Shown: positions 4,557-25,933 of the stretch, piece by piece
How positions within the stretch are numbered: position 1 is the stretch's first letter
Layout of the letters: every line of letters starts with the position of its first letter
DNA from: a virus
Strand: one strand, 5' to 3'
Length of the DNA: 64,000 nucleotides
IMG/VR virus record: IMGVR_UViG_3300022407_006288
Location: 66,873 to 130,872 of that record
Position numbers and translations under genes: made by a program
The notes under the pieces: generated by a model
Database searches by the model: none
Told to the model about the DNA's origin: nothing
The model's input: only the letters and a program-made list of their open reading frames with translations

Positions 4557-4588
4557 ATGATAAATACAAAATAATAACGGGGGTAGGA

Positions 4589-7111: not shown

Positions 7112-7125
7112 ATACGAATACAAAT

Positions 7126-7202: not shown

Positions 7203-7233
7203 TAAAACAAATAAATTTTTATAAAGAGTAAAT

Positions 7234-7770
7234 ATGTCCCATCCACAACAGTTAGCTTTTATTCGATCAGTAAAAGATCAATTTCCCAGTAATTTTACTG
7301 ATGTAAAGGTATTAGAAGTGGGCAGTTTAGATATTAATGGTTCAATTAGGCAGTTTTTTAATAATTGTGATTATTTGGGCATTGATGTTGGTGCAGGCCG
7401 ACATGTTGATGTGGTTTGTGCAGGACAAGATCTAGATCATGCCGATGCCACATATGATACTGTGGCATCCTGTGAGTGTTTTGAGCATAATCCCGAGTGG
7501 CTTAAAACATTCAGCAACATGCATCGGCTTGCTAAACCAGGGGGCCTTGTTTTTGTAACATGTGCTACCACAGGCCGCCCGGAACACGGCACAACTAAGA
7601 CATCTCCAAACGACAGTCCATTGACAATTGGTATAGGATGGGATTATTATAAGAACCTAACAGAGCATGATTTTAAAACCGCGTTTGAGTTAGATGAAAT
7701 GTTCAGTTTGTGGAATATAAGAACAGATATGTCACATCGTGATCTATACTTTTATGGAGTGAAACGATAA
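7234..7770 (+). CDS. Class I SAM-dependent methyltransferase
   Basis: VLEVGSLDING motif I; CECFEHNP. Confidence 0.88.
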   Translation: MSHPQQLAFIRSVKDQFPSNFTDVKVLEVGSLDINGSIRQFFNNCDYLGIDVGAGRHVDVVCAGQDLDHADATYDTVASCECFEHNPEWLKTFSNMHRLAKPGGLVFVTCATTGRPEHGTTKTSPNDSPLTIGIGWDYYKNLTEHDFKTAFELDEMFSLWNIRTDMSHRDLYFYGVKR

Positions 7771-7785
7771 TATTTTAAAGTTTCT

Positions 7786-8042
7786 TGAATGACAGCTTAC
7801 GGCGGCTACCGATACCAAGAGCATATTGTAATACCTTCTACCCAAAATAATATCGGTTATCGACCGAGGTAGATATTGCATAGTGAATAATTTGTCTTTT
7901 TCTTGTCTGTACAAAAGAATAAACAATTAGAATGAGGGAATAATTGGCCCTTAATTAACGGGTAGAATTTATGCGTACATCATAAAGTCCTAAGATGCCT
8001 GTTAAATTATCAGTTTGGTGAAAAAGCGGTTTAAGTCATTCA
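7786..8042. ncRNA. Candidate structured non-coding RNA
   Basis: No credible ORF; ends pair (TGAATGAC/GTCATTCA); several internal 5-7 bp complementary pairs. Confidence 0.35.
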
Positions 8043-8058
8043 TTTTTATTTGATAGAC

Positions 8059-8134
8059 GCCTGGGTGCGTAGAGAGGTCATACGTCTCCTTTACACGGAG
8101 AGCGATACTGGTTCGAGTCCAGTCCCAGGTACCA
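8059..8134 (+). tRNA. tRNA-Val(TAC)
   Basis: TCTCC-TTTACAC-GGAGA anticodon arm, T-loop TTCGAGT, CCA. Confidence 0.93.
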
Positions 8135-8186
8135 GTTTTAATCATGTAGAGATATTATTAGATAAATATAGTTTTAAATATATATG

Positions 8187-8262
8187 GGGGGATTAGCTCA
8201 GTTGGGAGAGCGTATGCTTTGCAAGCATAATGTCGTCGGTTCGATCCCGTCATCCTCCACCA
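8187..8262 (+). tRNA. tRNA-Ala(TGC)
   Basis: GGGGGAT/ATCCTCC acceptor with G3:U70, anticodon TGC, CCA. Confidence 0.95.
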
Positions 8263-8277
8263 TAGTTAGAAAACAAT

Positions 8278-8353
8278 TCCTCAATAGCTCAGTCGGTAGA
8301 GTAGGTGACTGTTAATCACTTGGTCGGAGGTTCAAGTCCTTCTTGAGGAGCCA
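8278..8353 (+). tRNA. tRNA-Asn(GTT)
   Basis: TCCTCAA/TTGAGGA acceptor, GGTGA-CTGTTAA-TCACT arm, CCA. Confidence 0.95.
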
Positions 8354-8375
8354 CCTTATATGGTAGAACAACAAA

Positions 8376-8711
8376 ATGAAAATATACTATCAAGATGAAT
8401 ACGGTGTTGTTATATATACTGCCACAGCTACATTAGTTCCACAAGCAGGCAACACAGTAATTTTTCAACAAGATACTTATCGTGTTAGTTCTGTTGCCTG
8501 GGCAATTGAACTTGATCAAATAATAGTATCCGTAACACAAAATCAAACAAAATTATCCGAAAAGGATAACACCAGCAATAGACTTCAGGACATAAACACA
8601 GCTATAATTGCTGTAGGTAGAAGAGTTGATCAACAAGAAAAGAAAGGTCGATTACTTTCCGAACAACTTGTTTCAGTTAGAACTCAATTAAAGCAAAAGG
8701 CACAAAAATGA
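8376..8711 (+). CDS. Hypothetical protein with C-terminal coiled coil
   Basis: 111-aa ORF. Confidence 0.7.
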   Translation: MKIYYQDEYGVVIYTATATLVPQAGNTVIFQQDTYRVSSVAWAIELDQIIVSVTQNQTKLSEKDNTSNRLQDINTAIIAVGRRVDQQEKKGRLLSEQLVSVRTQLKQKAQK

Positions 8712-8911
8712 TAATGATACCAGATAAAAACTTTAGGATGAAGAGAAGCACCAAGTGCATGATAGCACTAATGCGAGGAGAATCTCAACAAGGTCGAAAT
8801 CAATTTAAGAAAATGATGATTCAGGCAGAAATTCACGAAGAAGCAGCAAAACGCGCCGCACTCAAATCACGAGATAATGCACCTGGTAAAACAGCCAAAG
8901 ATCCAGAATAA
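8708..8911 (+). CDS. Hypothetical protein
   Basis: ATGA overlap with upstream stop. Confidence 0.7.
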   Translation: MIMIPDKNFRMKRSTKCMIALMRGESQQGRNQFKKMMIQAEIHEEAAKRAALKSRDNAPGKTAKDPE

Positions 8912-8932
8912 CTATATTAGCCCTGTACTATC

Positions 8933-8970
8933 AATCCGCAATTGTGTGCATCGCAGTTGCGGATTTTTTT
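8933..8970 (+). terminator. Intrinsic terminator
   Basis: AATCCGCAATTG/CAGTTGCGGATT stem plus T-run. Confidence 0.75.
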
Positions 8971-9071
8971 ATTTATAGTATCTTGATTAAACATACTTAT
9001 TTAGAATCCAATTTAAGTAATAAATAATATCTAGTAATAGGACTAGGCCAAACTATTTTATTTGAGGTACT

Positions 9072-9731
9072 ATGGATTCTTTTATAGAAAGACTATCAGA
9101 ATTACAACAATTTCTATCTAAACTGTCATGGAAGAAAATTTTTCAGTTATTTGCGCTCCTGTTAATAATTTCAGTTGCATGGTTTTCCTATGCAATTAGC
9201 GATCAATTGTTCACTTATATAAGAACAGAAAAAATACAGCACATAGTTTCTCCAACCAAGCAGTTGTCCCAAACAACAATAGAGAAAATAACCGCAGCAA
9301 CCAGCAGATCTGATCTTGTGTTGGGATCAGGCGTTACCATATTTAACTTTCAAAAAAATGTTAGGCATGTTATATATCTAGGTGCAAATTCGTATGATTT
9401 AAACGCTGATTTTAACAAGTATAATCATCTATTGAATACAGAATCCCCCATATTTGGACAGAATGATTTTTATAATCGCAAAATAGTTGACATTATCAAT
9501 GGCGATTTTATATGCGTACCTTATGAAAATACACCATTTGCACAAGAAATGCCCGATTCAATACGTCATGCACAAACACTTTGCGTACATGGTATGCCAC
9601 CGGTTTTTGGAAAACTTACCGGTACTGTTATGTTTTTCTTAAACAAGCCGCCCTCACTGGCAGAAACAGATCAGTTAAGAATCATAGCCAGAGATTTGTC
9701 TACATACATCTATGATCGTGAATTAAAATAA
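9072..9731 (+). CDS. Single-TM protein with C-terminal GAF-like domain (T4 holin T-like), paralog 1
   Basis: Amphipathic N-terminus, TM at about aa 23-42, FICVPY...LCVHGMPPVFGKLTGTVMFFL. Confidence 0.5.
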   Translation: MDSFIERLSELQQFLSKLSWKKIFQLFALLLIISVAWFSYAISDQLFTYIRTEKIQHIVSPTKQLSQTTIEKITAATSRSDLVLGSGVTIFNFQKNVRHVIYLGANSYDLNADFNKYNHLLNTESPIFGQNDFYNRKIVDIINGDFICVPYENTPFAQEMPDSIRHAQTLCVHGMPPVFGKLTGTVMFFLNKPPSLAETDQLRIIARDLSTYIYDRELK

Positions 9732-9782
9732 ATTAGGGCATTATTGAAGCATAATGGAAGCACACACTCGCAGGATAGCAGC

Positions 9783-10373
9783 ATGACTAAATTTAGATTT
9801 ACTACTAGTAAAATTCTTATAATTACGATTATATGTTTACTTTTACTGTTTGTGAGGTTATATTTTTCTCATGCTGCTAACGATCAATCTCGTGTTATTA
9901 TAAAGCCGGAATTGTCGGAATATGTTGTCAACAATGTGCAGAGAATTCCCGATTTGGTTGGTGTACAGATTATTTCTATTAATCTACAAAAAAACACAAG
10001 ATATGTAATGTACAGCTATTTTAAAGATAGCAATGTTGACAAAATGTATTCGAATTTTTTTGAAAAAAGTCTCAGTGACGACATTCCTTTTTTCACCCGA
10101 GACAATGATAAAGTAAATTCATATCTTGTTAAATTAATTAATCATGAGTTTACATGTGTGCCTTATACAAGCACAGTCATGCACGAGTATGTTCCGGCAG
10201 CAGAAAAAAATATCAAATCAGTGTGTGCTGTTGCAATACCTCCGTCATATGGTTCTTTAACCGGCGCAATAGAGATATATCTAAGTAAAGAACCCGAAAA
10301 TAAAGATGTACTAATAACAATTTCTAAAAATATTTCTAATCGCCTTATTACCGAAATAAACATCCGCCCCTGA
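9783..10373 (+). CDS. Single-TM protein with GAF-like domain, paralog 2
   Basis: TM then FTCVPY...VCAVAIPPSYGSLTGAIEIYL; clearly homologous to 9072-9731. Start may be TTG 9744. Confidence 0.5.
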   Translation: MTKFRFTTSKILIITIICLLLLFVRLYFSHAANDQSRVIIKPELSEYVVNNVQRIPDLVGVQIISINLQKNTRYVMYSYFKDSNVDKMYSNFFEKSLSDDIPFFTRDNDKVNSYLVKLINHEFTCVPYTSTVMHEYVPAAEKNIKSVCAVAIPPSYGSLTGAIEIYLSKEPENKDVLITISKNISNRLITEINIRP

Positions 10374-10391
10374 GTCTATCACTCATACCAG

Positions 10392-10420
10392 TTGACATTT
10401 TTTTAAGATTTTTGTATAAT
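10392..10420 (+). promoter_or_regulatory. Consensus sigma70 (early) promoter
   Basis: TTGACA-17 bp-TATAAT. Confidence 0.88.
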
Positions 10421-10445
10421 AGCAAAAATCTACCACACGTGTCTT

Positions 10446-11516
10446 ATGCGAAAACTGGCCACTATTCGTCAAGTTAAAGAAATACTGCCAATTGCTGATG
10501 CAGATGCCATTGTCTTGGTCAAAATTGATGGATGGAATTGTGTAGCACTAAAGGACGAATTTTCGATAGGCGACCGGTGTGTTTATTTTGAAATTGATAG
10601 TTTTATTCCCTTATGCCCACAAGTTGAGCACATTCGTGCCCGTGCATACAAACGTATGGGAGAAAAAGAAGGTGTGCGTATTAAAACTATTAAATTGCGT
10701 GGCGTTATTAGTCAAGGACTGGCACTGCCTTTAAGTAAATTTCCCAATGCTGTAGATGCGTATAATAATACCGCTCATGATTCGCAAGATGGCTATTTTG
10801 ATGTATCGGACATACTGGGTGTGGAAAAGTATGAAATACCCGTTCCTGCATCCTTAAACGGTCAAATTTTTGGTAATTTCCCCACTTGTATTAAAAAGAC
10901 TGATCAAGAGCGTTGTCAAAATCTGGGTGCGGATATTTTTGTTAAAAATCAAGATTCCCGATACGAAGTTACCATGAAACTTGATGGCACTTCCTTTACT
11001 GCATTTTACGTTAACGGAGATAGCGGAGTTTGTGGTCGCAACTGGCAATTGCAAATAAACGAAGAAAATCAACACAATAGCTTAATTCGTATGTACGTTG
11101 ACAGTGATTTGCAACAAGTTTTAAGCAAATTTGACAGAAATTTTGCACTACAGGGCGAGCTAATGGGTCCGGCTATACAAAAAAATCGTGAAGGCCTATC
11201 CGCACATAAACTGTTTATCTTTGACATCTATGACATTGATCGTGGTTGTTATTTAACGCCTGTTGATAGACACAGTGTCATGACTGAACTATGGCATCTT
11301 GGACTAAAGAAAAATATGGTACAACATGTGCCTGTACTACACGCTGATACAACACTTGGCAGTTTAGGCATCCACACAGTAGACGAACTTTTAAGGTTTG
11401 CAGAAGGCGTCAGTATTAATCATCCCGTACGTGAAGGGCTGGTATTTAAGCGTGTCGATGGCGCTTTTAGTTTCAAAGCCATATCCAACATATTCTTGCT
11501 TAAATTTGAAGATTAA
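10446..11516 (+). CDS. RNA ligase, DRB0094 family
   Basis: MRKLATIRQV N-terminus, motif I TMKLDGTS, QGELMG, FDIYDI, REGLVFK, FKAIS. Confidence 0.9.
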   Translation: MRKLATIRQVKEILPIADADAIVLVKIDGWNCVALKDEFSIGDRCVYFEIDSFIPLCPQVEHIRARAYKRMGEKEGVRIKTIKLRGVISQGLALPLSKFPNAVDAYNNTAHDSQDGYFDVSDILGVEKYEIPVPASLNGQIFGNFPTCIKKTDQERCQNLGADIFVKNQDSRYEVTMKLDGTSFTAFYVNGDSGVCGRNWQLQINEENQHNSLIRMYVDSDLQQVLSKFDRNFALQGELMGPAIQKNREGLSAHKLFIFDIYDIDRGCYLTPVDRHSVMTELWHLGLKKNMVQHVPVLHADTTLGSLGIHTVDELLRFAEGVSINHPVREGLVFKRVDGAFSFKAISNIFLLKFED

Positions 11517-11557
11517 TTTTAAAAATTTCTTGATAAATAGTATATGGAACATATACT

Positions 11558-12391
11558 ATGAAATTATTTGAACTATTTTTAACGGAAACTACAGAGGAAG
11601 AAAGAGCAATACTTTCTTTATCTTCTGCTATTTCTAATCATATCAACAAGTATAAGGATATTGAGCCCGAACAGCTCAATTACGATGATTATGACTCCGA
11701 TTACGACGACGATTTGGATATACACGGGGATGAAGATCAGCCACAAGATATAGGTACAATTGGTCAGTTATTTGACACACCTTTAGATATATTAAATCCC
11801 GTCAGACTTGAATTACAATCCGATTATGGAATTAGACAACGCATAAAAAGAGAAGACGAATCAGACAAGCAAATACTAAAACCTGGGTCAGATGATATAT
11901 TGGGACTATGGTATTCTGATGGCAAGACCATTGTGCTTAATAAAGATTATTTAGGATCACCGTCTTTAAAGTCAGCAGTATCCCATGAACTGAGACATGC
12001 TTTAGATGACTTTAAGTCTGATTTTAGAGCAAACACGCCCAATACCAAATATACAAAGTCCAAGATTAAATCTATTCGCAAGTTATCTGACAAGGATGAT
12101 CCGCACGGGTTAAAAATATTATCTGAACCTGCAGAAATAAATGCTAGATTTTCACAAGTACTTCATGCCATGACACCTGTTATAGCAAGATCAGTTAAAC
12201 TTGAACCATACTATGCAGATAGACTTATTAAAAATCAATTAAACAATGAGCTTGAACGTTATTTAATTGCAGATTTTTTCCCGCATAAACAAAATTCAAG
12301 AGAATATAAAAGATTTATAAAACGTGCAATGGATTTTGTACAAAAAGAAAAGAAATATCAAGAAGACTTGTTAAAGTCAAAAAAAGATTAA
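11558..12391 (+). CDS. Putative HExxH metallopeptidase-like late protein
   Basis: SHELRHALD plus downstream EINAR; late promoter 11532-11539. Confidence 0.5.
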   Translation: MKLFELFLTETTEEERAILSLSSAISNHINKYKDIEPEQLNYDDYDSDYDDDLDIHGDEDQPQDIGTIGQLFDTPLDILNPVRLELQSDYGIRQRIKREDESDKQILKPGSDDILGLWYSDGKTIVLNKDYLGSPSLKSAVSHELRHALDDFKSDFRANTPNTKYTKSKIKSIRKLSDKDDPHGLKILSEPAEINARFSQVLHAMTPVIARSVKLEPYYADRLIKNQLNNELERYLIADFFPHKQNSREYKRFIKRAMDFVQKEKKYQEDLLKSKKD

Positions 12392-12405
12392 ACAAAAGGC
12401 ATGGT

Positions 12406-12834
12406 ATGTGGATTGAAAATGTAGCTGCCGCCGATGTTTTGTCGAGAAATCATCGAGATGCCGGGCACAACAGTATGCTGATTAGTATTGCTGACCCAGG
12501 CGGGTGGCATCCTACGCCCTCGCATAATTTTAAAGAAATTCACGATTTTGAATTTTCCGATTTGGAAAAAGATCAGAAAATTATGGGTTCTGCAGTTAAG
12601 ATTTTGGATGAAGATGCAGAAAGACTTGTGCGTTTATTGCAGCGTGCTTTTGAAAATCAAATGAATGTTGTGGTACATTGTGTGGCAGGTATATGCAGGT
12701 CAGGTGCAGTTTGCGAAGTAGGCATCATGATGGGCTTTGAAGATACAGGCAGATTTCGTAATCCAAATCTACTGGTCAAACACAAAATGATGCAAGTGCT
12801 AGGGTGGAGTTACAACGAGGAAAACAATGCATAA
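12406..12834 (+). CDS. Protein-tyrosine/dual-specificity phosphatase-like protein
   Basis: CX5R motif VHCVAGICRSGAV. Confidence 0.85.
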   Translation: MWIENVAAADVLSRNHRDAGHNSMLISIADPGGWHPTPSHNFKEIHDFEFSDLEKDQKIMGSAVKILDEDAERLVRLLQRAFENQMNVVVHCVAGICRSGAVCEVGIMMGFEDTGRFRNPNLLVKHKMMQVLGWSYNEENNA

Positions 12835-13252
12835 TATGAAAAAGTTTTTATTTATTGCACTACTATTTACAAATATTTGCTGTTATGCTGCAGAGATGAC
12901 GTTGCCTATTCGCGGAGTGGCCGATGGCGACACAATTAAAACTAAATTAGATTTACCGTGCCCGTTGTGTTATGTGTCCATTAGAATTTTGGGAATAGAT
13001 ACCCCCGAATCAACCCGCCTGGCCAAATGTCCGGCAGAATTGGCAAAAGGACTTGAAGCAAAGGCATTCCTTACCAATTTAGTCAAAGGACATGGTACCA
13101 TGACAGTACGACATGTCAAGTGGGATAAATATGGTGGCAGAATTGATGCAACCGTAGAAATTGATAATAAGAATGTTGCCGATTTGTTACTTGCAGCAGG
13201 TCTTGCAAAACCATATACCGGTCAAGGACCAAAACCCAATTGGTGCTCTTAA
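12827..13252 (+). CDS. Thermonuclease (SNase-like) with signal peptide
   Basis: DGDT, IRILGIDTPE, WDKYGGR motifs. Confidence 0.9.
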   Translation: MHNMKKFLFIALLFTNICCYAAEMTLPIRGVADGDTIKTKLDLPCPLCYVSIRILGIDTPESTRLAKCPAELAKGLEAKAFLTNLVKGHGTMTVRHVKWDKYGGRIDATVEIDNKNVADLLLAAGLAKPYTGQGPKPNWCS

Positions 13253-13311
13253 CCAGAATTACAATTGATATTATAATAAGACTACTAAATAAGTACGTAA
13301 TAAAAAAATTT

Positions 13312-13386
13312 GCCCCTTTAGCATAGTGGTACTGCACCCGCCTTGTAAGCGGAAGATCGTCTGTTCGATTCAGACAAGGGGCACCA
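13312..13386 (+). tRNA. tRNA-Thr(TGT)
   Basis: GCCCCTT/AAGGGGC acceptor, CTTGTAA loop, CCA. Confidence 0.92.
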
Positions 13387-13426
13387 ATAAAACATGTAAA
13401 GGATAATTAAAATAATAAAAAGCAAT

Positions 13427-13828
13427 ATGCATAAAAATTTTAATTGTCTAAATTGTGATAAAGAACATAACTTTAAAGGTTATAGTTATACTAATAAGTA
13501 TTGCAATAATCAGTGTCAACAAGATTTCGAATATAAGGCAGCAATAAAAAATTGGGAAATTATTACACCCGGTAAAAGTAGAATTAAAAGATATCTTGCA
13601 GAATTATTTGGCAACAAATGTTCAATATGTAATATTCAAACATGGTGTAATAAAGAAATTATTTTTGAATTAGAACATAGAGATGGTAATAGCGAAAATA
13701 ATAATGCGGATAATTTGTGTTTAATTTGTCCAAATTGCCATAGTCAAACAAGTACATATAAAAATAAAAATATGGGCAATGGACGGCATATTAGGCGGCA
13801 GAGATACGCAGAAGGTAAAAGTTTTTAG
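13427..13828 (+). CDS. HNH endonuclease (free-standing, between tRNA genes)
   Basis: Zn-finger CxxC...YC-x3-C; ELEHRDGNSENN...LCLICPNCHSQT. Confidence 0.9.
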   Translation: MHKNFNCLNCDKEHNFKGYSYTNKYCNNQCQQDFEYKAAIKNWEIITPGKSRIKRYLAELFGNKCSICNIQTWCNKEIIFELEHRDGNSENNNADNLCLICPNCHSQTSTYKNKNMGNGRHIRRQRYAEGKSF

Positions 13829-13856
13829 CAGTATATAAGTAATAAAGATATATTTG

Positions 13857-13930
13857 GCGAAATTAGTTTAATGGTAAAACCGTAGATTTCCAATCTTCTG
13901 TCATCAGTTCGATTCTGATATTTCGCTCCA
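13857..13930 (+). tRNA. tRNA-Gly(TCC)
   Basis: GCGAAAT/ATTTCGC acceptor, TTTCCAA loop, CCA. Confidence 0.9.
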
Positions 13931-13962
13931 TCTAATACACAACAAAAAACAAGGACTCAATT

Positions 13963-14523
13963 ATGTCATTACGTGAATTTGCAAAAAATCATCATCCCAG
14001 GACTGACAAGTACGATCTAGGATACATAGAAACATTTTACGATGAATTGTTTACTCCTAGGTCTGCCGACGTAAAAAATTTACTCGAGATTGGTATTTAC
14101 AAAGGTGATTCTATTTTGCTATGGAGAGACTTTTTTCCTAACGCTATAATCACTGGTGCTGATATTACCCAGTGCCCACGTCTCCACTCAGAATCTCGTG
14201 TAGAAGTTTTTTATGAAAATGCATACACACACAATTTTGTGGACAAGTTCCCCAAGAATCACTTTGATATCATTATTGATGATGGCCCGCATACGTTTGA
14301 ATCCATGCAGTTTTTCTTAAAGAATTATTTAGAATTGGTGCAGCCCGGAGGTCTTTTAATTCTCGAGGATATTATTAACCCTGCGTGGACTCCGGAATTG
14401 GTAAAATTAATCGACCCTGCTGTCAGCAAGATAACTGCAGTGGACCTGCGAGGCAAACAACACACTGATAAATTATTACAAGATTGGAAAAACGGACTAG
14501 ATGTGATCATTGTAGAAAAGTAA
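13963..14523 (+). CDS. Class I SAM-dependent methyltransferase
   Basis: LLEIGIYKGDS, DIIIDDGPH, GGLLILED. Confidence 0.88.
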   Translation: MSLREFAKNHHPRTDKYDLGYIETFYDELFTPRSADVKNLLEIGIYKGDSILLWRDFFPNAIITGADITQCPRLHSESRVEVFYENAYTHNFVDKFPKNHFDIIIDDGPHTFESMQFFLKNYLELVQPGGLLILEDIINPAWTPELVKLIDPAVSKITAVDLRGKQHTDKLLQDWKNGLDVIIVEK

Positions 14524-14549
14524 TCAACTGTTTGATTTGTTTTTAAAAT

Positions 14550-14735
14550 ATGAGTAATTGCACATGTGGCAGAACAACTCGTAAGCCCATGTGCGATAAG
14601 AGCTGCAGCCTAACCGAAGCCGAGTATGTTGCACGTACAGCAAGACTGTCTCAACTACAAGCTAATTCTAAAATTCAAAATACCATAGTTCCCCCAATTG
14701 CCAATACTGCTAGTTCTGATAACAATAAAGCATAA
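14550..14735 (+). CDS. CDGSH-type Fe-S domain protein, His-to-Cys variant
   Basis: CTCGRTTRKPMCDKSC matches CxCxx[ST]xxxPxCDG[SAT]H spacing with Cys in place of His. Confidence 0.7.
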   Translation: MSNCTCGRTTRKPMCDKSCSLTEAEYVARTARLSQLQANSKIQNTIVPPIANTASSDNNKA

Positions 14736-14773
14736 ATACTGTTCTAGCACATTCAAGTGCACAAGGAGAAAAC

Positions 14774-14893
14774 ATGGACTTAATCAGCATAGTACTTGGT
14801 ATTGCAATCGGCGCCGCATTTTCACCATTTTGGGTGTCAGTTTGGGCTAAAATTAAAAAGTCAATTAAATCAGCTACACCGCCTGCACCCTAA
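14774..14893 (+). CDS. Small membrane peptide (39 aa)
   Basis: AGGAG RBS; MDLISIVLGIAIGAAFSPFWVSVWAKIKK... Confidence 0.7.
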   Translation: MDLISIVLGIAIGAAFSPFWVSVWAKIKKSIKSATPPAP

Positions 14894-14955
14894 GCAGTAC
14901 GTGATCTTTATATGATAACCGCCTGAACTATACTAATATAGTTCGGGTCAATAAT

Positions 14956-15043
14956 GGAAGATTGGCAGAGTGGCCGATTGCGTCAGTCTTGAAAACTGAA
15001 GGCCCGAAAGGGTCCGTGAGTTCGAATCTCACATCTTCCTCCA
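14956..15043 (+). tRNA. tRNA-Ser(TGA)
   Basis: GGAAGAT/ATCTTCC acceptor, TCAGT-CTTGAAA-ACTGA arm, long variable arm, CCA. Confidence 0.95.
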
Positions 15044-15140: not shown

Positions 15141-15284
15141 GCGTATTGTGGTAAATAAATAATTTAACACACATCAAAAACTATAGGTGAAGCAGTATTA
15201 CTATAAAGTACTAGTACAGCTGATTATTTAAATAATTAGCAGTAGTACCATGTAAATAAACTTATAATAATATGCGAGGAATCT

Positions 15285-16433
15285 ATGATACACACAGACT
15301 TGGAAACAGACTCACTCGGTACTAAGTTACCCACAATTGTTTATTTCAGTTATGATCATTCACACTCAACTGAGTGTACCGACCGAATAAGTAGCACAGC
15401 CACTTGTACATTTAAATTTCCCAGCACATGGAGTGAACTGGCAACCCATTTAGAGTCGGGTGAACATATAGTTGCAATTCATATCAGCATGATAAAAAGA
15501 TCTGATTCATCTATTTTGAATTTTTTAGGTGCAATTAGGGGATTATGCAAATGCATGCCTGTATCTGACAGCTTAAAAATTGCAGTGATCATTGATCAAG
15601 ATACCGCTCAACATGAAATTGCCGAATTACACAAACACAAAGTATTTGGTTTACTGCTAGATATTGAATGCTATCCCATTGATGACGTGTGTGCATCAAT
15701 TGACTCGCTGATAGCAGGCATACCCCATTGGCCCGAGCATATTACTAGTCAGCTGCCCAATCCACTGGCCACACTGGTAACTGTGTATTTTCGAAAAGAT
15801 TGGGCTAAACATATAACTCCTCTCATGGCAGAAACTCTCAGTGGACAGATAACTTTAAATGTACGTTACTGTACCAGCTGGGAGGACTTGGATACAGCAC
15901 TTTTGGAAAATCCTCATCAGCTGATAATACACGCTGATACCATCCGAGAGTTAAGTACCACCATACCAGAAATTATTTCAATGATCGAAACACGGTTAAG
16001 ACTTTATGGACCACGTATACCCGTAGCAATTGAAATTGAACCCACTACTGCCTTGCATGTCATAAAAGAATTAAAAAAATGCGGAGTATTTGGTATTGTG
16101 CCCAGTACAGCCACATGGGGAATTAATGAAACAATTACTGCTATTCGCGCACTGGTCAAACGTGTTCCCTATTGGCCCAAGCATATTATTGATCAGCTGC
16201 CCGGCAACAAACTGGTTATAAAAAACAAAAAATCCGGAATTAGTGTAACACCACGACAACGTCAAGTTTTGGATCTTATATGCAATCGCGGATTAAGCAA
16301 TAAACAAATTGCCAAATCATTAAGTATTTCCGAAAGTACTGTAAAAATACATATTGGGTGCATACTCAAAGAGTACGGTGTAAGAAATAGAACACAGCTG
16401 GTTTTGGCTGCAGCTTGTCTCCTGAAAGCATAA
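15285..16433 (+). CDS. LuxR/NarL-type regulator with two tandem atypical receiver-like domains
   Basis: C-terminal HTH TPRQRQVLDLICNRGLSNKQIAKSLSISESTVKIHIG...RNRTQLV; internal duplication ending IPHWPEHITSQLP / VPYWPKHIIDQLP. Confidence 0.88.
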   Translation: MIHTDLETDSLGTKLPTIVYFSYDHSHSTECTDRISSTATCTFKFPSTWSELATHLESGEHIVAIHISMIKRSDSSILNFLGAIRGLCKCMPVSDSLKIAVIIDQDTAQHEIAELHKHKVFGLLLDIECYPIDDVCASIDSLIAGIPHWPEHITSQLPNPLATLVTVYFRKDWAKHITPLMAETLSGQITLNVRYCTSWEDLDTALLENPHQLIIHADTIRELSTTIPEIISMIETRLRLYGPRIPVAIEIEPTTALHVIKELKKCGVFGIVPSTATWGINETITAIRALVKRVPYWPKHIIDQLPGNKLVIKNKKSGISVTPRQRQVLDLICNRGLSNKQIAKSLSISESTVKIHIGCILKEYGVRNRTQLVLAAACLLKA

Positions 16434-16530
16434 TAGCCCACGCCCTCGTGGCATATTTTTTTAAATAAAAATCTATAACGCTGAAGTGCTATTCCTGCTA
16501 AAGTACTTGGTATAATACCTGTTTAATCTT

Positions 16531-16574
16531 TAAATAAATGCATACTACAAATGGAAATTGGTTCTGTCTGTAGT
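16531..16574 (+). repeat. Duplicated promoter/leader hairpin, copy 1 (copy 2 at 17326-17369)
   Basis: 39/44 identical; TAAATA element followed by ACTACA/TGTAGT stem. Confidence 0.85.
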
Positions 16575-16642: not shown

Positions 16643-17206
16643 ATGGCCGATATGACAGGACTAACAACTGATCCATTTTTCTCATTACTTGCTCAAGTGC
16701 AAGACGTCAAGACCAAAGTTTCAGACAGCATTTTTGAAAACTACAAGCTACAAATAGCACAATCAAACGACATCAACAACCGTGCAATGCAAGTTGCATT
16801 GCATGACACAGCCGCATTTGCTGATTTGAAAAATGCGGTTTCTAATGGTACATTGCAGACCATGCTTGCTGCTGCACGCACTGATGCTGCTATTGCCGCA
16901 ACTGCAATGAGCACACAACGTGTTGTCATGGAACAGGGCGAAGCTACTCGTGGATTAATTGCTGCACTAAACACACAAAACTTGAATACTGCATTGATCA
17001 ACACAAACACAGCTCTTTACAGTCTAAACGGACAGTATTCCGGATTAGGTCTTGCATATGGCGGCGCTGTTGCTGCTGTTCAAAGCGCAAATTCTGTTAG
17101 CTCAGTGAATGCACTACACAGTGCTGTATCCGGTCAGAGATTGATCAATACAGGTAGCATGGCTTCTACATCACAGACATCTACACCGACATCTATTGGC
17201 GGCTAA
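16643..17206 (+). CDS. Ala/Thr/Asn/Gln-rich coiled-coil protein, paralog A1 (unknown function)
   Basis: AAGGA RBS; about 80% identical to 17424-17984. Confidence 0.9.
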   Translation: MADMTGLTTDPFFSLLAQVQDVKTKVSDSIFENYKLQIAQSNDINNRAMQVALHDTAAFADLKNAVSNGTLQTMLAAARTDAAIAATAMSTQRVVMEQGEATRGLIAALNTQNLNTALINTNTALYSLNGQYSGLGLAYGGAVAAVQSANSVSSVNALHSAVSGQRLINTGSMASTSQTSTPTSIGG

Positions 17207-17226
17207 AAGTACACTTGTACTTTACA

Positions 17227-17254
17227 AAATACCTTCCTTCCGGGAGGTATTTTT
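17227..17254 (+). terminator. Intrinsic terminator between paralogs
   Basis: AATACCTTCC/GGGAGGTATT stem plus T-run. Confidence 0.75.
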
Positions 17255-17325
17255 ATGGCTAAAATTTACATAATATTGAAGTTGTAGTTGTACTAATGCA
17301 TGTATTAAATCCCCAGTCTATCCAT

Positions 17326-17369
17326 TAAATAAATGCATACTACAAATAGAAATTGGTTTTACTTGTAGT
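17326..17369 (+). repeat. Duplicated promoter/leader hairpin, copy 2
   Basis: See 16531-16574. Confidence 0.85.
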
Positions 17370-17423
17370 TATTATAACTGAAGCTACAAAAGTTTTGGTA
17401 TTTTTAATTAAGGAATTATTATC

Positions 17424-17984
17424 ATGGCCGATATGACAGGACTAACAACTGATCCATTCTTTTCATTACTTGCCCAAGTGCAAGATGTCAAGACCAAAGT
17501 TTCAGACAGCATTTTTGAAAACTACAAGCTACAAGTAGCACAAGCAAATGACATCAACAATCGCGCAATGCAAGTAGCATTAAGCAACGCAACTGCACTC
17601 ACCGACTTGAAGCAGGCAACTACTGAAAGCACACTACAAACCATGCTTGCTGCTGCACGCACTGATGCTGCTATTGGCGCAACTGCAATGAGCACACAAA
17701 GTGTTATTATGCAGCAAGGTGAAGCAACTCGTGGATTAGTTGGCGGATTGAACACACAAAACTTGAATACCGCATTGATCAACACAAACACAGCTCTTTC
17801 TAGCCTAAACGGTCAATACTCTGGCTTAGGTCTTGCATATGGCGGCGCTGTTGCTGCTGTTCAAAGCGCAAATTCTGTTAACGCAGTAAATGCTCTTAAT
17901 AGCGCAATTGCAACACAAGGCCTGGTTAACACAGGTACTATGACTGGAACTACACAAACCGCAACACCAACATCTATTCGTTAA
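17424..17984 (+). CDS. Ala/Thr/Asn/Gln-rich coiled-coil protein, paralog A2
   Basis: First 37 aa identical to A1. Confidence 0.9.
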   Translation: MADMTGLTTDPFFSLLAQVQDVKTKVSDSIFENYKLQVAQANDINNRAMQVALSNATALTDLKQATTESTLQTMLAAARTDAAIGATAMSTQSVIMQQGEATRGLVGGLNTQNLNTALINTNTALSSLNGQYSGLGLAYGGAVAAVQSANSVNAVNALNSAIATQGLVNTGTMTGTTQTATPTSIR

Positions 17985-18001
17985 TAGATAAGGAGGTTAT
18001 T

Positions 18002-18175
18002 ATGTTTGGATCTAACATTGGATACGGGGCCTGGTCGCCACGTGGATATTTAGGTGCCGGCATAGGATATCCATATTATGGATATTCTGGATGTGGATAC
18101 CCGTACGGCGGATGCCCATACGGTGGATATCCAGGATGGGGATTTTACAATTCTCCCTATCTTCCGTTAATTTAA
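18002..18175 (+). CDS. Gly/Tyr/Pro-rich micropeptide (57 aa)
   Basis: AAGGAGG RBS; MFGSNIGYGAWSPRGYLGAGIGYPYYGYSGCGYPYGGCPYGGYPGWGFYNSPYLPLI; not in ORF track. Confidence 0.85.
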   Translation: MFGSNIGYGAWSPRGYLGAGIGYPYYGYSGCGYPYGGCPYGGYPGWGFYNSPYLPLI

Positions 18176-18193
18176 GTTATAGATAAGTGGATC

Positions 18194-18221
18194 ATAGACT
18201 GACTCACGTGAGTCAGTCTAT
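18194..18221. repeat. Perfect 28-bp palindrome
   Basis: ATAGACTGACTCAC|GTGAGTCAGTCTAT. Confidence 0.95.
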
Positions 18222-18238
18222 TTTAAAGGAGAACAAAA

Positions 18239-18442
18239 ATGTACCCAGGATACTTATATCCCTATTACAGAAGCTATGCATATCCTTACCCAAGTTGGGT
18301 GTATGGTGGTTATACAGGTTATGGTGGCTACGGTGGTTATGGATCAAATATTATAGGCAGCGCAATTGCCAATCAAAGTGTTATAAACACCGGCAACATT
18401 GCAGGATTTACACAAACAGCCACACCCACAGTTATTTGGTAA
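18239..18442 (+). CDS. Tyr/Gly-rich micropeptide with shared C-terminal motif (67 aa)
   Basis: AAGGAG RBS; YPY/GGY repeats then SAIANQSVINTGNIAGFTQTATPTVIW. Confidence 0.88.
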   Translation: MYPGYLYPYYRSYAYPYPSWVYGGYTGYGGYGGYGSNIIGSAIANQSVINTGNIAGFTQTATPTVIW

Positions 18443-18459: not shown

Positions 18460-18642
18460 ATGTATAAAAAAATATCACATAACATATTAAAAGAACACTT
18501 TGATAGTCCGGCATTTATGCCAACATCTAGTTTACCTAAATTAGGTGATAATTTTATACATCCCGGTAATGGATCGTTATCTATTAACAATCCATTACTT
18601 TATTATGTGATAAATGAAGACATTATGCAATTTAGGAAATAA
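18460..18642 (+). CDS. Small hypothetical protein (60 aa)
   Basis: AAGG RBS; MYKKISHNILKEHF... Confidence 0.7.
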   Translation: MYKKISHNILKEHFDSPAFMPTSSLPKLGDNFIHPGNGSLSINNPLLYYVINEDIMQFRK

Positions 18643-19158: not shown

Positions 19159-19650
19159 ATGTTTAACAATTTAGGTATATTTAGCAATAATTTAATCACC
19201 CCTATTATACTTCGTGGTGCCACATCGCCGTGTCTAGCACCACGTATTCCTGTATGTCCGAGTCCGGCTTCCGATGCCATAGAAATCGGCGGCATTGGTA
19301 ACGATATTATTAACATCGGCGGCGGGGGTGTAGGACCACCCGGCCCCCCAGGACCACCCGGTACTATTGGACTGGTACCAGTGACTGATGTAGCAACACC
19401 CACATACACGGCATTAAGCACTGACTATTTTTTATGTGTATTAACCAATGGATTAGTTACTATTACATTACCAACAGGTATATTAGGGACAGTATACATT
19501 GTTAAAGATTGTTTTGGTGATGCAGCAAACAACCCAATTACTATTCAGGGTACAGGCGGGCAGTTAGTCGATGGCAGTACAGCCACTATTAACACCAATT
19601 TTGGTAGCTTACAATTCGTATTCAATGGATTTGATTGGAGCATAGTATGA
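19159..19650 (+). CDS. Short collagen-like protein with C-terminal beta-domain
   Basis: GVGPPGPPGPPG; C-terminal domain homologous to 20926-21327. Confidence 0.8.
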   Translation: MFNNLGIFSNNLITPIILRGATSPCLAPRIPVCPSPASDAIEIGGIGNDIINIGGGGVGPPGPPGPPGTIGLVPVTDVATPTYTALSTDYFLCVLTNGLVTITLPTGILGTVYIVKDCFGDAANNPITIQGTGGQLVDGSTATINTNFGSLQFVFNGFDWSIV

Positions 19651-19692: not shown

Positions 19693-20850
19693 ATGTTAGG
19701 TATATTTTCAGCAAACTTTCCTCAAGGACCTCTGCGTCCGGGAATTAACTTACGTAGACCGGTTCGGGTGTTTGCAGGACAAATTGCAAATTATAACCGC
19801 GGATATGGTTCAGTAAACACCAACTCAATGAGTGGTACAAATCTACTTCGTTTAACTGTTACTAGTACAACACCGCAAACAATTCCTCAAGGACCCGGTA
19901 TTGTGCCTCTTAATGACATGTTATTGACCAGTACAATTAATGGAAACTTTGTGTCAACATTTGACGCTGACTACGGTATTGTCGGCGACTTAATCGATAT
20001 TACTGCCGCAGGTGCCGCCGCTAATACAGCGTTAGCTGCACAGTTAGCCGCATTACCCGGTGGCGTTCCACACGGTGCTGTATTTGGCAACGGCGAAGTT
20101 TTAACACCCGGTATTTACGATGTAGTAACTCCTGCTGCTATTCAAGGCATTTTGACATTGAACGGTGGCGGTGATCCCAATGCATTGTTTGTGATCAGAG
20201 TTGCCGGCGCATTAACCAGTGTGGCCGCAAGTCAGGTGTTATTAACAAATGGTGCCACAGCCAACAATGTGTTCTGGGTAAGTCAAGGTGCCACAGCACT
20301 AGGTGCTAATACCATCTTTCGTGGCACAGCATTGGCAGTAGGGGGAGCCGCTGGCATAGGTGCCGGCAGCATAGTTAATGGTAGATTGTTATCGACACTT
20401 GGCGCAGTTACTACTGACACCAGTATAGTAACACAACCAGGTGCTACAACAACTGCTATTGCATTGGGTGTGCTTGAAAACTTTGCTCTATTCACCAATA
20501 GCGGTGCGGTAGCCAATACAGGGACAAGCATCATAACTGGGAACATTGGAACCAATCTAGGACTTATTACTGGATACGGACTCCCAACTATAGTAAATGG
20601 CAACGTATATATTCCGGGAAGTTTGGCTGCTGGTCCAGTAGCCGCTGACTTTGGTATCTATAAGAATGGAGTATTGATTCCGGGTACATTAGTTTCAGTA
20701 TCCGGTCCAACAACAATTACTGCCGCTCACGTGACATCAACGGGTCCTGTGGTATTGTTAGTGGGTGATGTAGTTACTGCTAGAGCAACTGCTGTACTAG
20801 GCACATTAACAGTGAATACAAGAACATTAACTTTACAACAGGTACCGTAA
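19693..20850 (+). CDS. Ice-binding (DUF3494-like) domain protein with BclA-CTD-like flanks
   Basis: LTPGIY...LTLNGGGDPNALFVIRVAGAL...LTNGATANNVFWV...FRGTAL...NGRLLS; flanks QTIPQGPGIVPLN and FGIYKNGVLIPGT...LLVGDVVT. Confidence 0.85.
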   Translation: MLGIFSANFPQGPLRPGINLRRPVRVFAGQIANYNRGYGSVNTNSMSGTNLLRLTVTSTTPQTIPQGPGIVPLNDMLLTSTINGNFVSTFDADYGIVGDLIDITAAGAAANTALAAQLAALPGGVPHGAVFGNGEVLTPGIYDVVTPAAIQGILTLNGGGDPNALFVIRVAGALTSVAASQVLLTNGATANNVFWVSQGATALGANTIFRGTALAVGGAAGIGAGSIVNGRLLSTLGAVTTDTSIVTQPGATTTAIALGVLENFALFTNSGAVANTGTSIITGNIGTNLGLITGYGLPTIVNGNVYIPGSLAAGPVAADFGIYKNGVLIPGTLVSVSGPTTITAAHVTSTGPVVLLVGDVVTARATAVLGTLTVNTRTLTLQQVP

Positions 20851-20925: not shown

Positions 20926-21327
20926 ATGTCATATACAAACAATCCAACTTCGATACTTGCCGGACCAGGTATCACCGTTGTACCAACAACAGGTACCGGT
21001 GCAGAAGTAGTTACCATCAGTGCTAGCGGCGGCGGATTCGTAGATATTAGAACTGCTGTTGCAACTCCTGTTACGGTAGTGGCTGCAACTGATAATATCA
21101 TTGATGTAGCTGTTCCAGGTCCAGTTGCCGTAGCAGTAACATTACCTGCTGGTGTACTAGGCCAAGAGTTCACAATCAAAGATGGATTAGGTTTAGCAGC
21201 ACCTGCAACTCCAATCACTATCACACCAACTGCTGGTACAATTGATGGTGCAGCAACTGCAGTTATCGATGCACCATATGGTTCATTAACATTTGTGTAC
21301 AATGGTACGCAATGGTTGATTCTATAA
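20926..21327 (+). CDS. Small beta-rich fibre-type protein
   Basis: VTLPAGVLGQEFTIKDGLG...ITI...IDG...YGSLTFVYNGTQW; paralogous to C-terminus of 19159-19650. Confidence 0.8.
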   Translation: MSYTNNPTSILAGPGITVVPTTGTGAEVVTISASGGGFVDIRTAVATPVTVVAATDNIIDVAVPGPVAVAVTLPAGVLGQEFTIKDGLGLAAPATPITITPTAGTIDGAATAVIDAPYGSLTFVYNGTQWLIL

Positions 21328-21879: not shown

Positions 21880-22488
21880 ATGAATAAAGTGATTATAATA
21901 CATTACGAAGAAGATCCTGAAGCAATCTCAAAATTTAAAATTTTGTCACAGCGATTATGGAGCGAACATAATAGTTATACAAGAAATGGCATAATTAGTG
22001 CATTAGCAGGATTGCCCGATCTTGGCGATGTAATGAATAGATTAATGAGAAATCAAGAAGATATTGGTCAATTTATTGCTCCGTATTATGGTGCGGAAGC
22101 TGCTACTTCATTAACTAATTTGCTAAAAGAACATATTAATATTGCAGCTAACATAGTTGTTGCAGCAAGTCAAAATAAAAGTACGGCTGATCTCGAAGCC
22201 ACATGGCAGGCTAATGCAGTGTCTATAGCTGATCTCTTAGCTTCGCTTGATCCAGTCTATTGGTCTAAAAATATTGTACTGCCTGTGCTTCAACAACATT
22301 TAGCATGTACATTAAAAGAAATTGTATCTAGGTCAAAAAAAGATTGGTTAACAGATATTGCTGCCTATGATGACTGTTCTGCAGTAGTTGCAGTCCTTGC
22401 TGAAGTAATAGCCTACGGTATTGTGTATAACTTTCCGGAAGAATTTATTATACAATATAAATCAAAGTCTTTTAAAAAAGTATACTAA
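21880..22488 (+). CDS. Four-helix bundle protein (Bacillota family often mislabelled 'acetylglutamate kinase')
   Basis: RLWSEHNSYTR..II....LPD...V..RL.RN..DIG..IAPYYG......L..LLKEHI.IA; no kinase motifs. Confidence 0.7.
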   Translation: MNKVIIIHYEEDPEAISKFKILSQRLWSEHNSYTRNGIISALAGLPDLGDVMNRLMRNQEDIGQFIAPYYGAEAATSLTNLLKEHINIAANIVVAASQNKSTADLEATWQANAVSIADLLASLDPVYWSKNIVLPVLQQHLACTLKEIVSRSKKDWLTDIAAYDDCSAVVAVLAEVIAYGIVYNFPEEFIIQYKSKSFKKVY

Positions 22489-23240
22489 AAGCAAAGCCCT
22501 TTTGGTCGGGCTATAAATTACAAAAGGATGTCAGCGATGATCGAGATTTTGTATATACGCCCACCAATAAGCCCCTACGGGATGTTGTTGACCTGCGAAA
22601 ATGGGCAAGCCCCATTGAAGATCAAAAATATCTAGGAAGTTGTACAGCAAATGCAATTGTGGGTGCACATGAGTTATTGACAATTAAAGAATTTCCAAAA
22701 CAATTTGTTGACCTCAGTAGACTATTTGTGTACTATAACGAGCGATTAATAGAAGGCACAATTAGCGAAGATTCCGGTGCATACCTAAGAACAGGAATTA
22801 AAGCAGTAAAGACTTATGGAATATCTACTGAAGCACTGTGGCCTTATAATATAAGTAAGTTTTCAACTACACCATCTCCAGAAAGTTACCAAGATGCAAA
22901 GTATAGAAACATTAAAAATTATTATCGTGTAGATAGCAATGATAAAATGCTTGATGCACTAAATAATGATATACCTGTGGTTGTAGGCGTGTTGCTTTAT
23001 GAAGCATTTGATTCACTGGATAAAAATAATTACGTACTTGGTTTACCAGCTGACACAGAATCATTTACAGGAGGGCATGCCATGGTGCTAGTTGGATATG
23101 ATTTACCAAAAAAATTATTTTTAGTTAGAAATAGTTTTGGCATTGATTGGTGTATTGATGGATATTGCTGGATTACATTTGCATACATGGAAGAAAAATT
23201 ATTAGATGCTTGGATATTTGATATTGATTTAATTACTTAA
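22482..23240 (+). CDS. Papain-like cysteine peptidase (C1A)
   Basis: Frame upstream of the track ORF contains VDLRKWASPIEDQKYLGSCTANA (Gln/Cys); GGHAMVLVGY and VRNSFG complete the triad. No ATG/GTG/TTG before the Cys; ATA at 22482 assumed. Confidence 0.88.
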   Translation: MLKAKPFWSGYKLQKDVSDDRDFVYTPTNKPLRDVVDLRKWASPIEDQKYLGSCTANAIVGAHELLTIKEFPKQFVDLSRLFVYYNERLIEGTISEDSGAYLRTGIKAVKTYGISTEALWPYNISKFSTTPSPESYQDAKYRNIKNYYRVDSNDKMLDALNNDIPVVVGVLLYEAFDSLDKNNYVLGLPADTESFTGGHAMVLVGYDLPKKLFLVRNSFGIDWCIDGYCWITFAYMEEKLLDAWIFDIDLIT

Positions 23241-25066: not shown

Positions 25067-25933
25067 TTAAGAAACAATTGGTATAGCTGTTGCTGTTACA
25101 CTTGCAGGAGGTGCTGCAAAAGTAATTGTAGCTGATACATAACCAGTACCGCCAACTATGTTGGTAATTCCTGTTACTGCTCCGCTGGCGTTTATTACTG
25201 CTGTAGCAGAAGCACCTGTACCCGGACCACCAATAGTCACTATTGGTGCAACTGAGTAATAGTTGCCGCCAACAAGACTGGTAATACTAGTAAATGCTCC
25301 AGCATTAACGACAGCAGTAGCTGTTGCTGTAACCGCTGCGGCTGGCGCAGCAATTGTGGCTGTTGCGTTTGTTGCATATCCCGAACCTGGATTTCCAACA
25401 GTGATAGCAGTTACAACGCCACCAACAACTGTTGTTGTCAATATAGCACCTGTACCCGGCGGGCTTGAAATAGTAATTGATGGTACAGATGTATATCCGC
25501 GACCGCCATTAGTAATTTGAAAGCTAAGAATTTGTCCAGCCACACCCATATTAATTAGGTCAGCTTGCCCCAATGCAACAGCCGGCCGTGTTGACCAGGT
25601 ATAGCTGACAACTGTACCATTTTCAAAAACATCAACACGATATTGTGCTATCTTTGAGCAAGGTACTGGTGAACCTCCAAACGGAGTTGCAAGAATAAAA
25701 CATTCTCCCGTATTTAGCGCACTAATACTTGATGCATTAACCATGAATACAATTTCAGGTGCATGTATTTGTGCTGAATCTTGAACCATATAAGCACTTG
25801 AACCTGTTTGTTTTACAATGAATGCATCCGAGTATGATACGCCATCAGCAAATTTAACACCGTTTACTCTTATATGATTTGATCCAGGACCAACTGGTTC
25901 TCCGAACCATTTTTTCTGAATTGGTTTTCCCAT
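25067..25933 (-). CDS. Virion structural protein with repeated beta-sandwich units
   Basis: ITNGGRGYT / VGNPGSGY / VGGNYY / VGGTGY repeats; minus-strand GATAAATA at 26013-26020. Confidence 0.7.
   Translation of the reverse strand: MGKPIQKKWFGEPVGPGSNHIRVNGVKFADGVSYSDAFIVKQTGSSAYMVQDSAQIHAPEIVFMVNASSISALNTGECFILATPFGGSPVPCSKIAQYRVDVFENGTVVSYTWSTRPAVALGQADLINMGVAGQILSFQITNGGRGYTSVPSITISSPPGTGAILTTTVVGGVVTAITVGNPGSGYATNATATIAAPAAAVTATATAVVNAGAFTSITSLVGGNYYSVAPIVTIGGPGTGASATAVINASGAVTGITNIVGGTGYVSATITFAAPPASVTATAIPIVS

Follow-up and report, generated by a model that had tools for sequence, protein, structure and literature searches.

Why should two helical proteins and a micropeptide encoded next to them in a phage genome end in the same sequence? 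This question is raised by a 64,000-nucleotide stretch of DNA (hereafter the window; positions 66,873 to 130,872 of the IMG/VR record IMGVR_UViG_3300022407_006288), which makes up the latter half of a 130,872-bp contig from an uncultured freshwater jumbo (giant) phage. The window encodes, on the plus strand, the paralogous helical proteins A1 (187 amino acids, aa; 16643..17206) and A2 (186 aa; 17424..17984), which are 83% identical, and two peptides rich in Gly, Tyr, Pro and Trp, namely pep1 (57 aa; 18002..18175), which has no tail, and pep2 (67 aa; 18239..18442). The original prediction, made from the sequence alone, was that A1, A2 and pep2 share a 26-aa C-terminal motif and that this motif is a portable polymerization or docking tag that adds different cargo to one filament or lattice. 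The analysis described here shows that the shared tail is a 34-residue, largely uncharged module that varies in concert in A and pep2. The interpretation that we tentatively favor is that this tail is a co-assembly element joining the A proteins and pep2 in one supramolecular structure which would be a virion-associated fiber or matrix.

A common C-terminal tail in A proteins and pep2

The similar stretches of A1, A2 and pep2 begin at positions 17120, 17901 and 18359, respectively, and each lies at the exact C-terminus of its open reading frame (ORF), as originally noticed. The shared motif was readily confirmed, and its true extent is somewhat greater than 26 residues: BLASTP aligned the A2 tail with pep2 over 31 residues (E 2e-9), and the comparison of a profile of 34 A sequences with a profile of 29 pep2 sequences extended the match to 34 columns, in which residues 152-185 of A2 correspond to residues 33-66 of pep2 (97.4% probability, E 1.5e-11). 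As delimited by BLASTP, a tail hidden Markov model (HMM) and the profile comparison, the tail occupies 17877..17981 (+) in A2 and 18335..18439 (+) in pep2; the A1 tail (17096..17203, +) comprises the shared 34 columns and an additional GG. When the entire contig was scanned in six frames, these three copies were found and no fourth one.

For comparison, 42 related IMG/VR loci and three further contigs were collected. The motif is kept across the 42 loci, and in the related loci and the source genome the tail HMM detects it on A-type and pep2-type ORFs only; in most lineages, the tail is the only part that A and pep2 have in common. The tail consists mainly of eight residues, T, G, N, A, S, I, Q and V, which together account for 86% of its positions (15.5% Thr, 11.6% Gly, 11.4% Asn, 11.2% Ala, 11.0% Ser, 9.9% Ile, 8.1% Gln and 7.6% Val), and contains 2.2% charged residues. 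A Ser, a Gly and a Gln are invariant, and a second Gln and a Pro-Thr pair are nearly so. The tails within one genome are not identical and form subtypes, with x-Gln-Arg in A1-type proteins ('QR'), x-Gln-Gly in A2-type proteins ('QG') and Asn-Gln-Ser/Asn in pep2.

The proteins had also been described as otherwise unrelated. This is correct for pep2 as compared with the helical part of A but fails in one clade (loci L038-L040), where pep2 shares about 45 residues with the C-terminus of A, these residues being of the Gln-Arg subtype instead. A weaker echo of the motif, proposed for the N-terminus of the ice-binding protein encoded downstream (Pfam Ice_binding, 19693-20850), could not be substantiated: the tail HMM had no match in this protein at E<=10, BLASTP of its N-terminus against the neighboring collagen-like protein gave nothing, and an HMM of the N-termini of collagen-like proteins had no match either. 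The predicted complex of two copies of A2 (residues 100-186) and pep2 scored below the mark and is not used here as evidence either way.

Concerted variation of the tails

Three variants of the tail agree between A and pep2 in 38 of the 38 genomes that have both: replacement of the conserved Gln by Asn (Q13N), of Ser-Ala by Ser-Gln, and of Asn-Thr-Gly by x-Ile-Gly-x-Gly with one extra residue. In genomes with two A copies, the class is present in both copies. The rarer 'TYTG' variant of locus L023 is also matched between the tails, and so are the tails of the separate P0124 lineage (L048; NAFQSQ vs NSFQSQ). On a maximum-likelihood tree of the A core, from which the tail columns were excluded, 3 changes are needed to explain the distribution of Q13N, 1 for Ser-Ala to Ser-Gln and 6 for Asn-Thr-Gly to x-Ile-Gly-x-Gly. 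Taken together, the traits show pep2 changing with A in every phylogenetically independent pair (6/6 on supported branches and 10/10 on all branches); taken singly, each trait provides too few independent pairs for significance.

At the residues that are identical in the A and pep2 tails, the codons are identical in 47% of the cases within genomes and in 42% between genomes. Given these many codon differences at shared residues, it is the protein sequence of the tail that is conserved, and recent gene conversion does not explain the matching. Such co-variation within genomes is what one would predict for tails that touch one another or bind the same partner.

Carriers and distribution of the tail

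A profile search showed that the motif exists beyond the ORFs of this phage, yielding 44 clusters at E<=1e-3 among 1.84 billion representatives. The lengths of nearly all 44 clusters fall within the range of pep2 or that of A; nine clusters were fetched, all of them A-type or pep2-type, and two long repetitive matches (1178 and 1966 aa) were left unfetched. The carriers include the usual helical A, A-like proteins with different helical N-terminal parts, namely P0124 (244 aa) and P0160 (307 aa), and Gly/Tyr peptides, among them those of the L038 type with the other tail subtype. The notion of a portable tag is thus supported insofar as several carriers bear the tail as a separate unit whose protein sequence is conserved. 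The implied breadth of cargo is not: only two carrier classes occur among the representatives searched, all in this phage clade, and the tag is portable only within those bounds. The P0160 protein (L046:3567-4490) contains charged 11-residue repeats (EADVRxDIxK), carries the same tail and is encoded behind a LuxR-type gene; downstream of it, genes for small membrane proteins are found in place of those for the Gly/Tyr peptides.

In a collection of 5.8 billion proteins, A has 766 homologs, pointing to a widespread clade, the best 120 of which are 76-100% identical to A2 and come from contigs of up to 357 kb; some related A proteins are only 42-46% identical to A2. Among the matches listed, the sole named homolog of A is UFOVP116_300 from an uncultured Caudovirales phage; this protein and UFOVP116_301 are direct homologs of A and pep1, respectively, are encoded in the same order as here and are annotated as hypothetical proteins only. 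No A gene was found in the INPHARED cultured phages by tblastn. Among 185,579 species genomes, the only A match is on a 10.5-kb contig (CAZXGO010000088.1; L049) binned in an uncultured Chitinophagales metagenome-assembled genome, which is either mis-binned phage DNA or a weak hint at the host.

Pfam, PHROGs, NCBIfam, PADLOC and PDB sequence and profile searches returned nothing informative for A, pep1 or pep2 (one PADLOC match with E 0.016 was not used), A1 in particular having no Pfam, PHROG, NCBIfam or PDB sequence match. An ESM Atlas search returned only the protein's own family, and a search for longer fused forms, which is weak evidence, gave nothing informative.

The A proteins, the Gly/Tyr micropeptides and their expression

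The AlphaFold2 model of A2, computed from 34 sequences, contains a helix spanning residues 11-163, with pLDDT >90 at residues 30-120 (pTM 0.31). The hydrophobic periodicity of A is 3.6-3.65 in the N-terminal part and irregular later, rather than 3.5, and Gly clusters near residues 104-108 and 130-141 probably break the helix.

In pep1, the core RGYLxAGIGYPY is kept among relatives, with 33 distinct orthologs in the loci and at least 159 clusters in metagenomes. In pep2, the conserved parts are the N-terminus, M[FY]xGYxYPxYRS, and the tail, which ends in Trp; the Gly/Tyr stretches of both peptides vary freely. An apparent YxGxG[LI]xY echo that might have related pep1 to A was rejected (hhalign probability 0.09%). 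In one locus (L029:3213-3437), the reading frame of pep1 continues into the C-terminal end of a papain-like peptidase, the interior of the cassette described below, from pep2 through p202, being deleted.

A 23-nt box, TTAAATAAATGCATACTACAAAT, is a candidate promoter or operator and occurs in identical form about 95 nt upstream of A1 (16530..16552, +) and of A2 (17325..17347, +); these are its only two matches in the window, with 0 expected by chance. A related sequence, TTTAAATAAT, is present at 15226-15240, upstream of the LuxR-type gene. A scan of the window for late promoters (TATAAATA or TTAARTAAWT) gave sites too few and too scattered for a promoter class; the T4 late-promoter consensus TATAAATA does, however, stand ahead of the A genes in L041, L042 and L044.

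Shine-Dalgarno sequences precede A1, A2 and pep2, and pep1 starts 17 nt past the A2 stop codon, behind the strong Shine-Dalgarno sequence AAGGAGG. A1 is followed by a terminator-like hairpin with a T-run of its own (17233..17257, +). Between pep1 and pep2 lies a 12-bp perfect hairpin followed by a T-run (18194..18226, +), a putative terminator or attenuator. All 32 distinct related sequences have such an intergenic hairpin, of 11-13 bp, followed by a T-run and then by the ribosome-binding site of pep2, and the stems vary in sequence yet stay paired through compensatory changes; the loop is often CTCACAAGG-like. Given this conserved hairpin, pep2 is probably produced by read-through, in smaller amounts than A and pep1, and the hairpin may set the pep1:pep2 ratio.

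The conserved cassette and its phage context

The module comprising a regulator, A, pep1 and pep2 recurs in the 42 IMG/VR loci as part of a conserved cassette of 7-8 kb. Where the flank suffices, a LuxR/GerE regulator gene is followed by one or two copies of A, by pep1 and pep2, and then by genes for a 237-aa protein, a 178-250-aa protein, 2-4 small proteins that share a C-terminal domain (G-P-P collagen repeats being present in some), a paralog of the 237-aa protein and, finally, a papain-like peptidase. In the window, the cassette is headed by the gene for a helix-turn-helix regulator of the LuxR/GerE type (15285..16433, +; Pfam GerE, E 5e-15). A homolog of this regulator stands first in the cassettes of nearly all related loci, and in most loci, those of the distant P0160 and P0124 lineages among them, its gene immediately precedes A. 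The gene for the 237-aa protein, intact after pep2 in related phages, is reduced here to its first 60 codons (18460..18642, +). The same junction occurs in contigs from three other freshwater runs, indicating that the deletion is genuine in this phage population and did not arise through faulty assembly.

The small proteins of the cassette are typified by a collagen-like protein with GPP repeats (19159..19650, +), for which AlphaFold2 confidently predicts a C-terminal domain of 90 residues (pLDDT >93 for residues 71-163). In Foldseek searches, this domain matched gp10-type beta domains (E 1.7e-6 to 3e-4), namely those of the Klebsiella KP1 baseplate, the CBA120 tailspike TSP4 (its N-terminal domains) and T4 gp10, and further top matches of the protein were the Pa223 capsid spike and T4 gp9. 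A reading of these collagen-like neighbors as C1q/BclA-like exosporium proteins was rejected, the top matches being gp10-like with no BclA or C1q chain among the Foldseek matches. The same gp10-like domain is present in a 133-aa protein (20926..21327, +; phrog_15797, E 8e-8). Domains of the gp10 type are modules that attach fibers and spikes to virions, and the fold search supports the view that the cassette encodes a set of small appendage proteins. The collagen-like/gp10-like proteins (19159-19650; L013:14214-14684; L028:5454-5978) have a common N-terminal module before the G-P-P repeats, consisting of MFNNLGxxS, an Arg/Pro-rich stretch and QxGGxGxDxFxNxG, which may be a second shared anchoring element in the cassette. 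Comparison of the cassettes identifies a 202-aa paralog of the 237-aa protein (p202; 21880..22488, +), and a papain-like (C1) peptidase (22659..23240, +; Pfam Peptidase_C1, E 7.7e-11) closes the cassette in most loci.

Nearly all genes of the window are on one strand, and they include those for a tail sheath protein and a T4-type large terminase (TerL), which mark the window itself as structural. The terminase is 60% identical to that of PA5oct, a jumbo phage of Pseudomonas (Arenbergviridae), with lower similarity to those of the other listed phages; the source contig is that of a PA5oct-related freshwater myophage. Near-identical DNA is present in freshwater metagenomes from several studies. 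Upstream of the cassette are a tmRNA gene (4133-4573) and eight tRNA genes (2014-15043). The sole large gene on the minus strand nearby (25067-25933, -) encodes a protein of 288 aa, the repeats of which are similar to PHROG families of virion structural, baseplate-wedge and head-closure proteins.

A tentative model and its alternatives

If the tail joins A and pep2 in one structure, A would be an elongated, largely helical major building block with a flexible tail that orders only on oligomerization, when like tails pack together, probably in the form of in-register beta strands. With such packing, a change in one tail would select for the same change in the others. The peptide pep2 would be a two-part adaptor present in smaller amounts, its tail joining the A tails and its Gly/Tyr N-terminal part associating with the abundant Gly/Tyr peptide pep1, so that pep2 would link A to a Gly/Tyr matrix formed with pep1. 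This arrangement would resemble that of high-Gly/Tyr matrix proteins with helical keratin filaments, or that of a minor nucleator or anchor subunit endowed with the polymerization motif of its major subunit. The tail of A2 is unstructured in the predicted monomer and its body is confidently helical, which fits folding on assembly. Of the readings considered, a co-assembly tag accords best with the combined observations: a conserved terminal module, predicted to be disordered in isolation, is carried by a helical protein and by a two-part micropeptide, is matched in each genome, and belongs to a cassette of appendage-type genes that has a regulator of its own. We consider it rather unlikely, on present indications, that the proposal holds in its strictest form, in which a matched cross-beta motif, amyloid-like and in-register, would hold a virus-encoded assembly together, a sub-stoichiometric Gly/Tyr micropeptide would nucleate or anchor the helical protein via the shared tail, and a second Gly/Tyr micropeptide would form the matrix. 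If it does, we have found no earlier example of an amyloid-motif gene pair from a phage, and this pair would serve construction instead of signaling.

Several observations weigh against a co-assembly function of the tail. AlphaFold2 leaves the last 23 residues of A2 unstructured (pLDDT ~45-50, confidence being low for tails) and so gives no support for the beta-hairpin or amyloid-like structure of the original prediction. A coiled-coil structure of A is not supported, as there is no heptad signal, and accordingly a simple coiled-coil fiber is not indicated. The nearest cultured relative, PA5oct, has no A gene by a profile search of its genome. In the P0160 lineage, no Gly/Tyr peptide is encoded within about 4 kb downstream of the tailed A-like protein, so that pep2 is not always needed. 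As for the concerted changes, the A tail, pep1 and pep2 are located within about 1 kb and could recombine jointly, and the co-variation could partly reflect this linkage; ancient gene conversion could be another source of matching tails; and binding of both tails to a third partner would account for the co-variation equally well.

This last point defines the main rival to tail-tail contact, namely that the tails serve as a common address tag which some third component recognizes; this component could be a docking site on the capsid, the tail or a cassette product, or else an enzyme or chaperone, for example the papain-like peptidase, that trims or attaches both carriers. One receptor or enzyme co-evolving with all its clients would produce the same co-varying terminal tags, and candidates of both kinds are at hand: the C1 peptidase gene is the last of the cassette in most loci that have sufficient flank, and the cassette encodes several gp10-like domains, which are attachment modules in solved phage baseplates and tailspikes. 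The retention of the tail without pep2 in the P0160 lineage also speaks for such a tag. However, there is no evident cleavage motif, the peptidase is absent from some loci with ample flank (L004, L023 and L018), and the QR, QG and QS subtypes within one genome differ at many positions, which fits less easily with a single binding pocket; a search for a receptor with matching class changes, on a shallow look only, gave no candidate. On balance, we regard an address tag as possible but doubtful.

Two other explanations concern the origin and the action of the tail. Under an amyloid-signaling-type switch, one carrier would impose a cross-beta fold on the other by templating, triggering, for example, lysis or a membrane effect of A, or acting as a decoy that interferes with amyloid-based defense of the host. 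A short uncharged G/N/Q motif common to the products of adjacent genes and matched in each genome is the criterion behind the BASS motifs, and the order of A, a helical body followed by a C-terminal motif, is that of the Bab, Bell and HET-S effectors. Nevertheless, such a switch seems improbable: both motifs are C-terminal, Pfam, NCBIfam and PADLOC searches detected no NLR, sensor or Bell/HeLo domain, and no membrane-targeting segment is apparent in A, although no formal test was made; the duplication of A, its conservation (75-90%) among the closest metagenome homologs and its location among fiber-type structural genes fit a building block better. The tail might, at the other extreme, be a mark of descent only, if pep2 arose when the 3' end of an A gene was duplicated and fused to a Gly/Tyr peptide, with no joint function of the tails and with matches maintained by occasional conversion or linkage. 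That such fusions happen is indicated by the A-like C-terminus of the other subtype in the L038-L040 pep2, and both the proximity of the A, pep1 and pep2 genes and the slightly higher codon identity within than between genomes (0.47 vs 0.42) are compatible with this scenario. Against it, the tail is the best-conserved part of pep2 over all loci, the Gly/Tyr middle being free in length and sequence; over half of the conserved residues use different codons; and the Ser, Gly and Gln remain invariant in both carriers, also in lineages where the identity of A to A2 is only 42-46%. Given this selective conservation of the tail, descent without a shared function is unlikely, and we assign it very little probability.

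If the tails do co-assemble as proposed, they would provide a natural tag of about 34 residues for heterologous co-assembly, a function for phage micropeptides, and a test case for the co-evolution of self-complementary motifs that fall into natural specificity classes (NTG, xIGxG, Q->N and SQ).

Comparison with known systems

A short terminal motif shared by adjacent genes is a signature of amyloid signaling and of nucleator/subunit pairs and has so far been known, to our knowledge, from cellular immunity and biofilm systems. Here, this signature appears in a conserved, regulator-headed cassette of an abundant clade of uncultured freshwater jumbo phages, two Gly/Tyr micropeptide families of which are left unnamed by standard annotation.

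Among the signaling systems, the BASS motifs were found by the presence of a short motif shared by adjacent genes (bioRxiv 10.1101/2020.01.06.895854), and Bab/Agp of Escherichia coli is an amyloid-signaling motif pair (bioRxiv 10.1101/2024.11.07.622273). As in FASS (HET-s/NWD2), BASS1-11 and Bab/Agp, the tail is a short motif at a protein terminus, mostly without charge and with many G, N, Q and hydrophobic residues; it is encoded in adjacent genes, parted here by pep1 only, and matched in each genome, with the 34-column tail shared in this way in 38 loci. As in these pairs, one carrier is a small helical protein with a C-terminal motif. By contrast, the layout of an effector C-terminus paired with an NLR or sensor N-terminus is not seen, there being no Bell, HeLo, NB-ARC, NACHT, TPR or WD match; the tail is not similar to any Pfam amyloid-motif family; the partner is a Gly/Tyr peptide of 55-90 aa; and the setting is a phage cassette with fiber-type genes.

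In curli, the minor protein CsgB carries the polymerization motif of the major subunit CsgA, and here, too, a minor protein that has the motif of the major one could nucleate or anchor it. The Ser...Gln...Asn-x-Gly...Ala...Gln spacing of the tail is loosely reminiscent of the curlin repeat, and the upstream regulator belongs to the LuxR/CsgD class, CsgD being one of its many LuxR-type matches. Unlike the curli subunits with their five repeats, A and pep2 contain one motif per protein, without a Curlin_rpt match (no Pfam match at E<0.1), and no secretion genes of the CsgG/E/F type accompany them; the N-termini of A and pep2 (MADMTGL... and MYPGY...) are not signal-peptide-like.

Among phage proteins, T4 fibritin is an elongated helical protein that ends in the C-terminal foldon, and A likewise is elongated and helical, with a terminal module of about 30 residues that could set oligomerization and register. 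It differs from fibritin in the lack of a heptad and in having no match to solved structures in PDB profile searches, and the foldon, unlike the tail, is not common to a separate micropeptide. The comparison with T4 gp10-like attachment domains applies to the collagen-like neighbor, which has the gp10-type beta domain, and is not claimed for A or pep2.

A further parallel, by analogy only, is with the high glycine-tyrosine keratin-associated matrix proteins, which associate with helical keratin filaments. Both systems include small Gly/Tyr-rich (Cys-containing) proteins of about 50-90 aa encoded beside long alpha-helical proteins with which they presumably act; there is no homology, keratin is eukaryotic, and the interaction in the keratin system does not involve a shared terminal motif.

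Our literature search found no published description of the module formed by the tail, A, pep1 and pep2; the named homologs are so far called hypothetical only, and no family library names the A, pep1 or pep2 family. Adjacent genes sharing a short self-complementary terminal motif are a known principle, and what we describe is a new variant of it, in which the setting is a phage cassette with fiber-type genes and the carriers include Gly/Tyr micropeptides.

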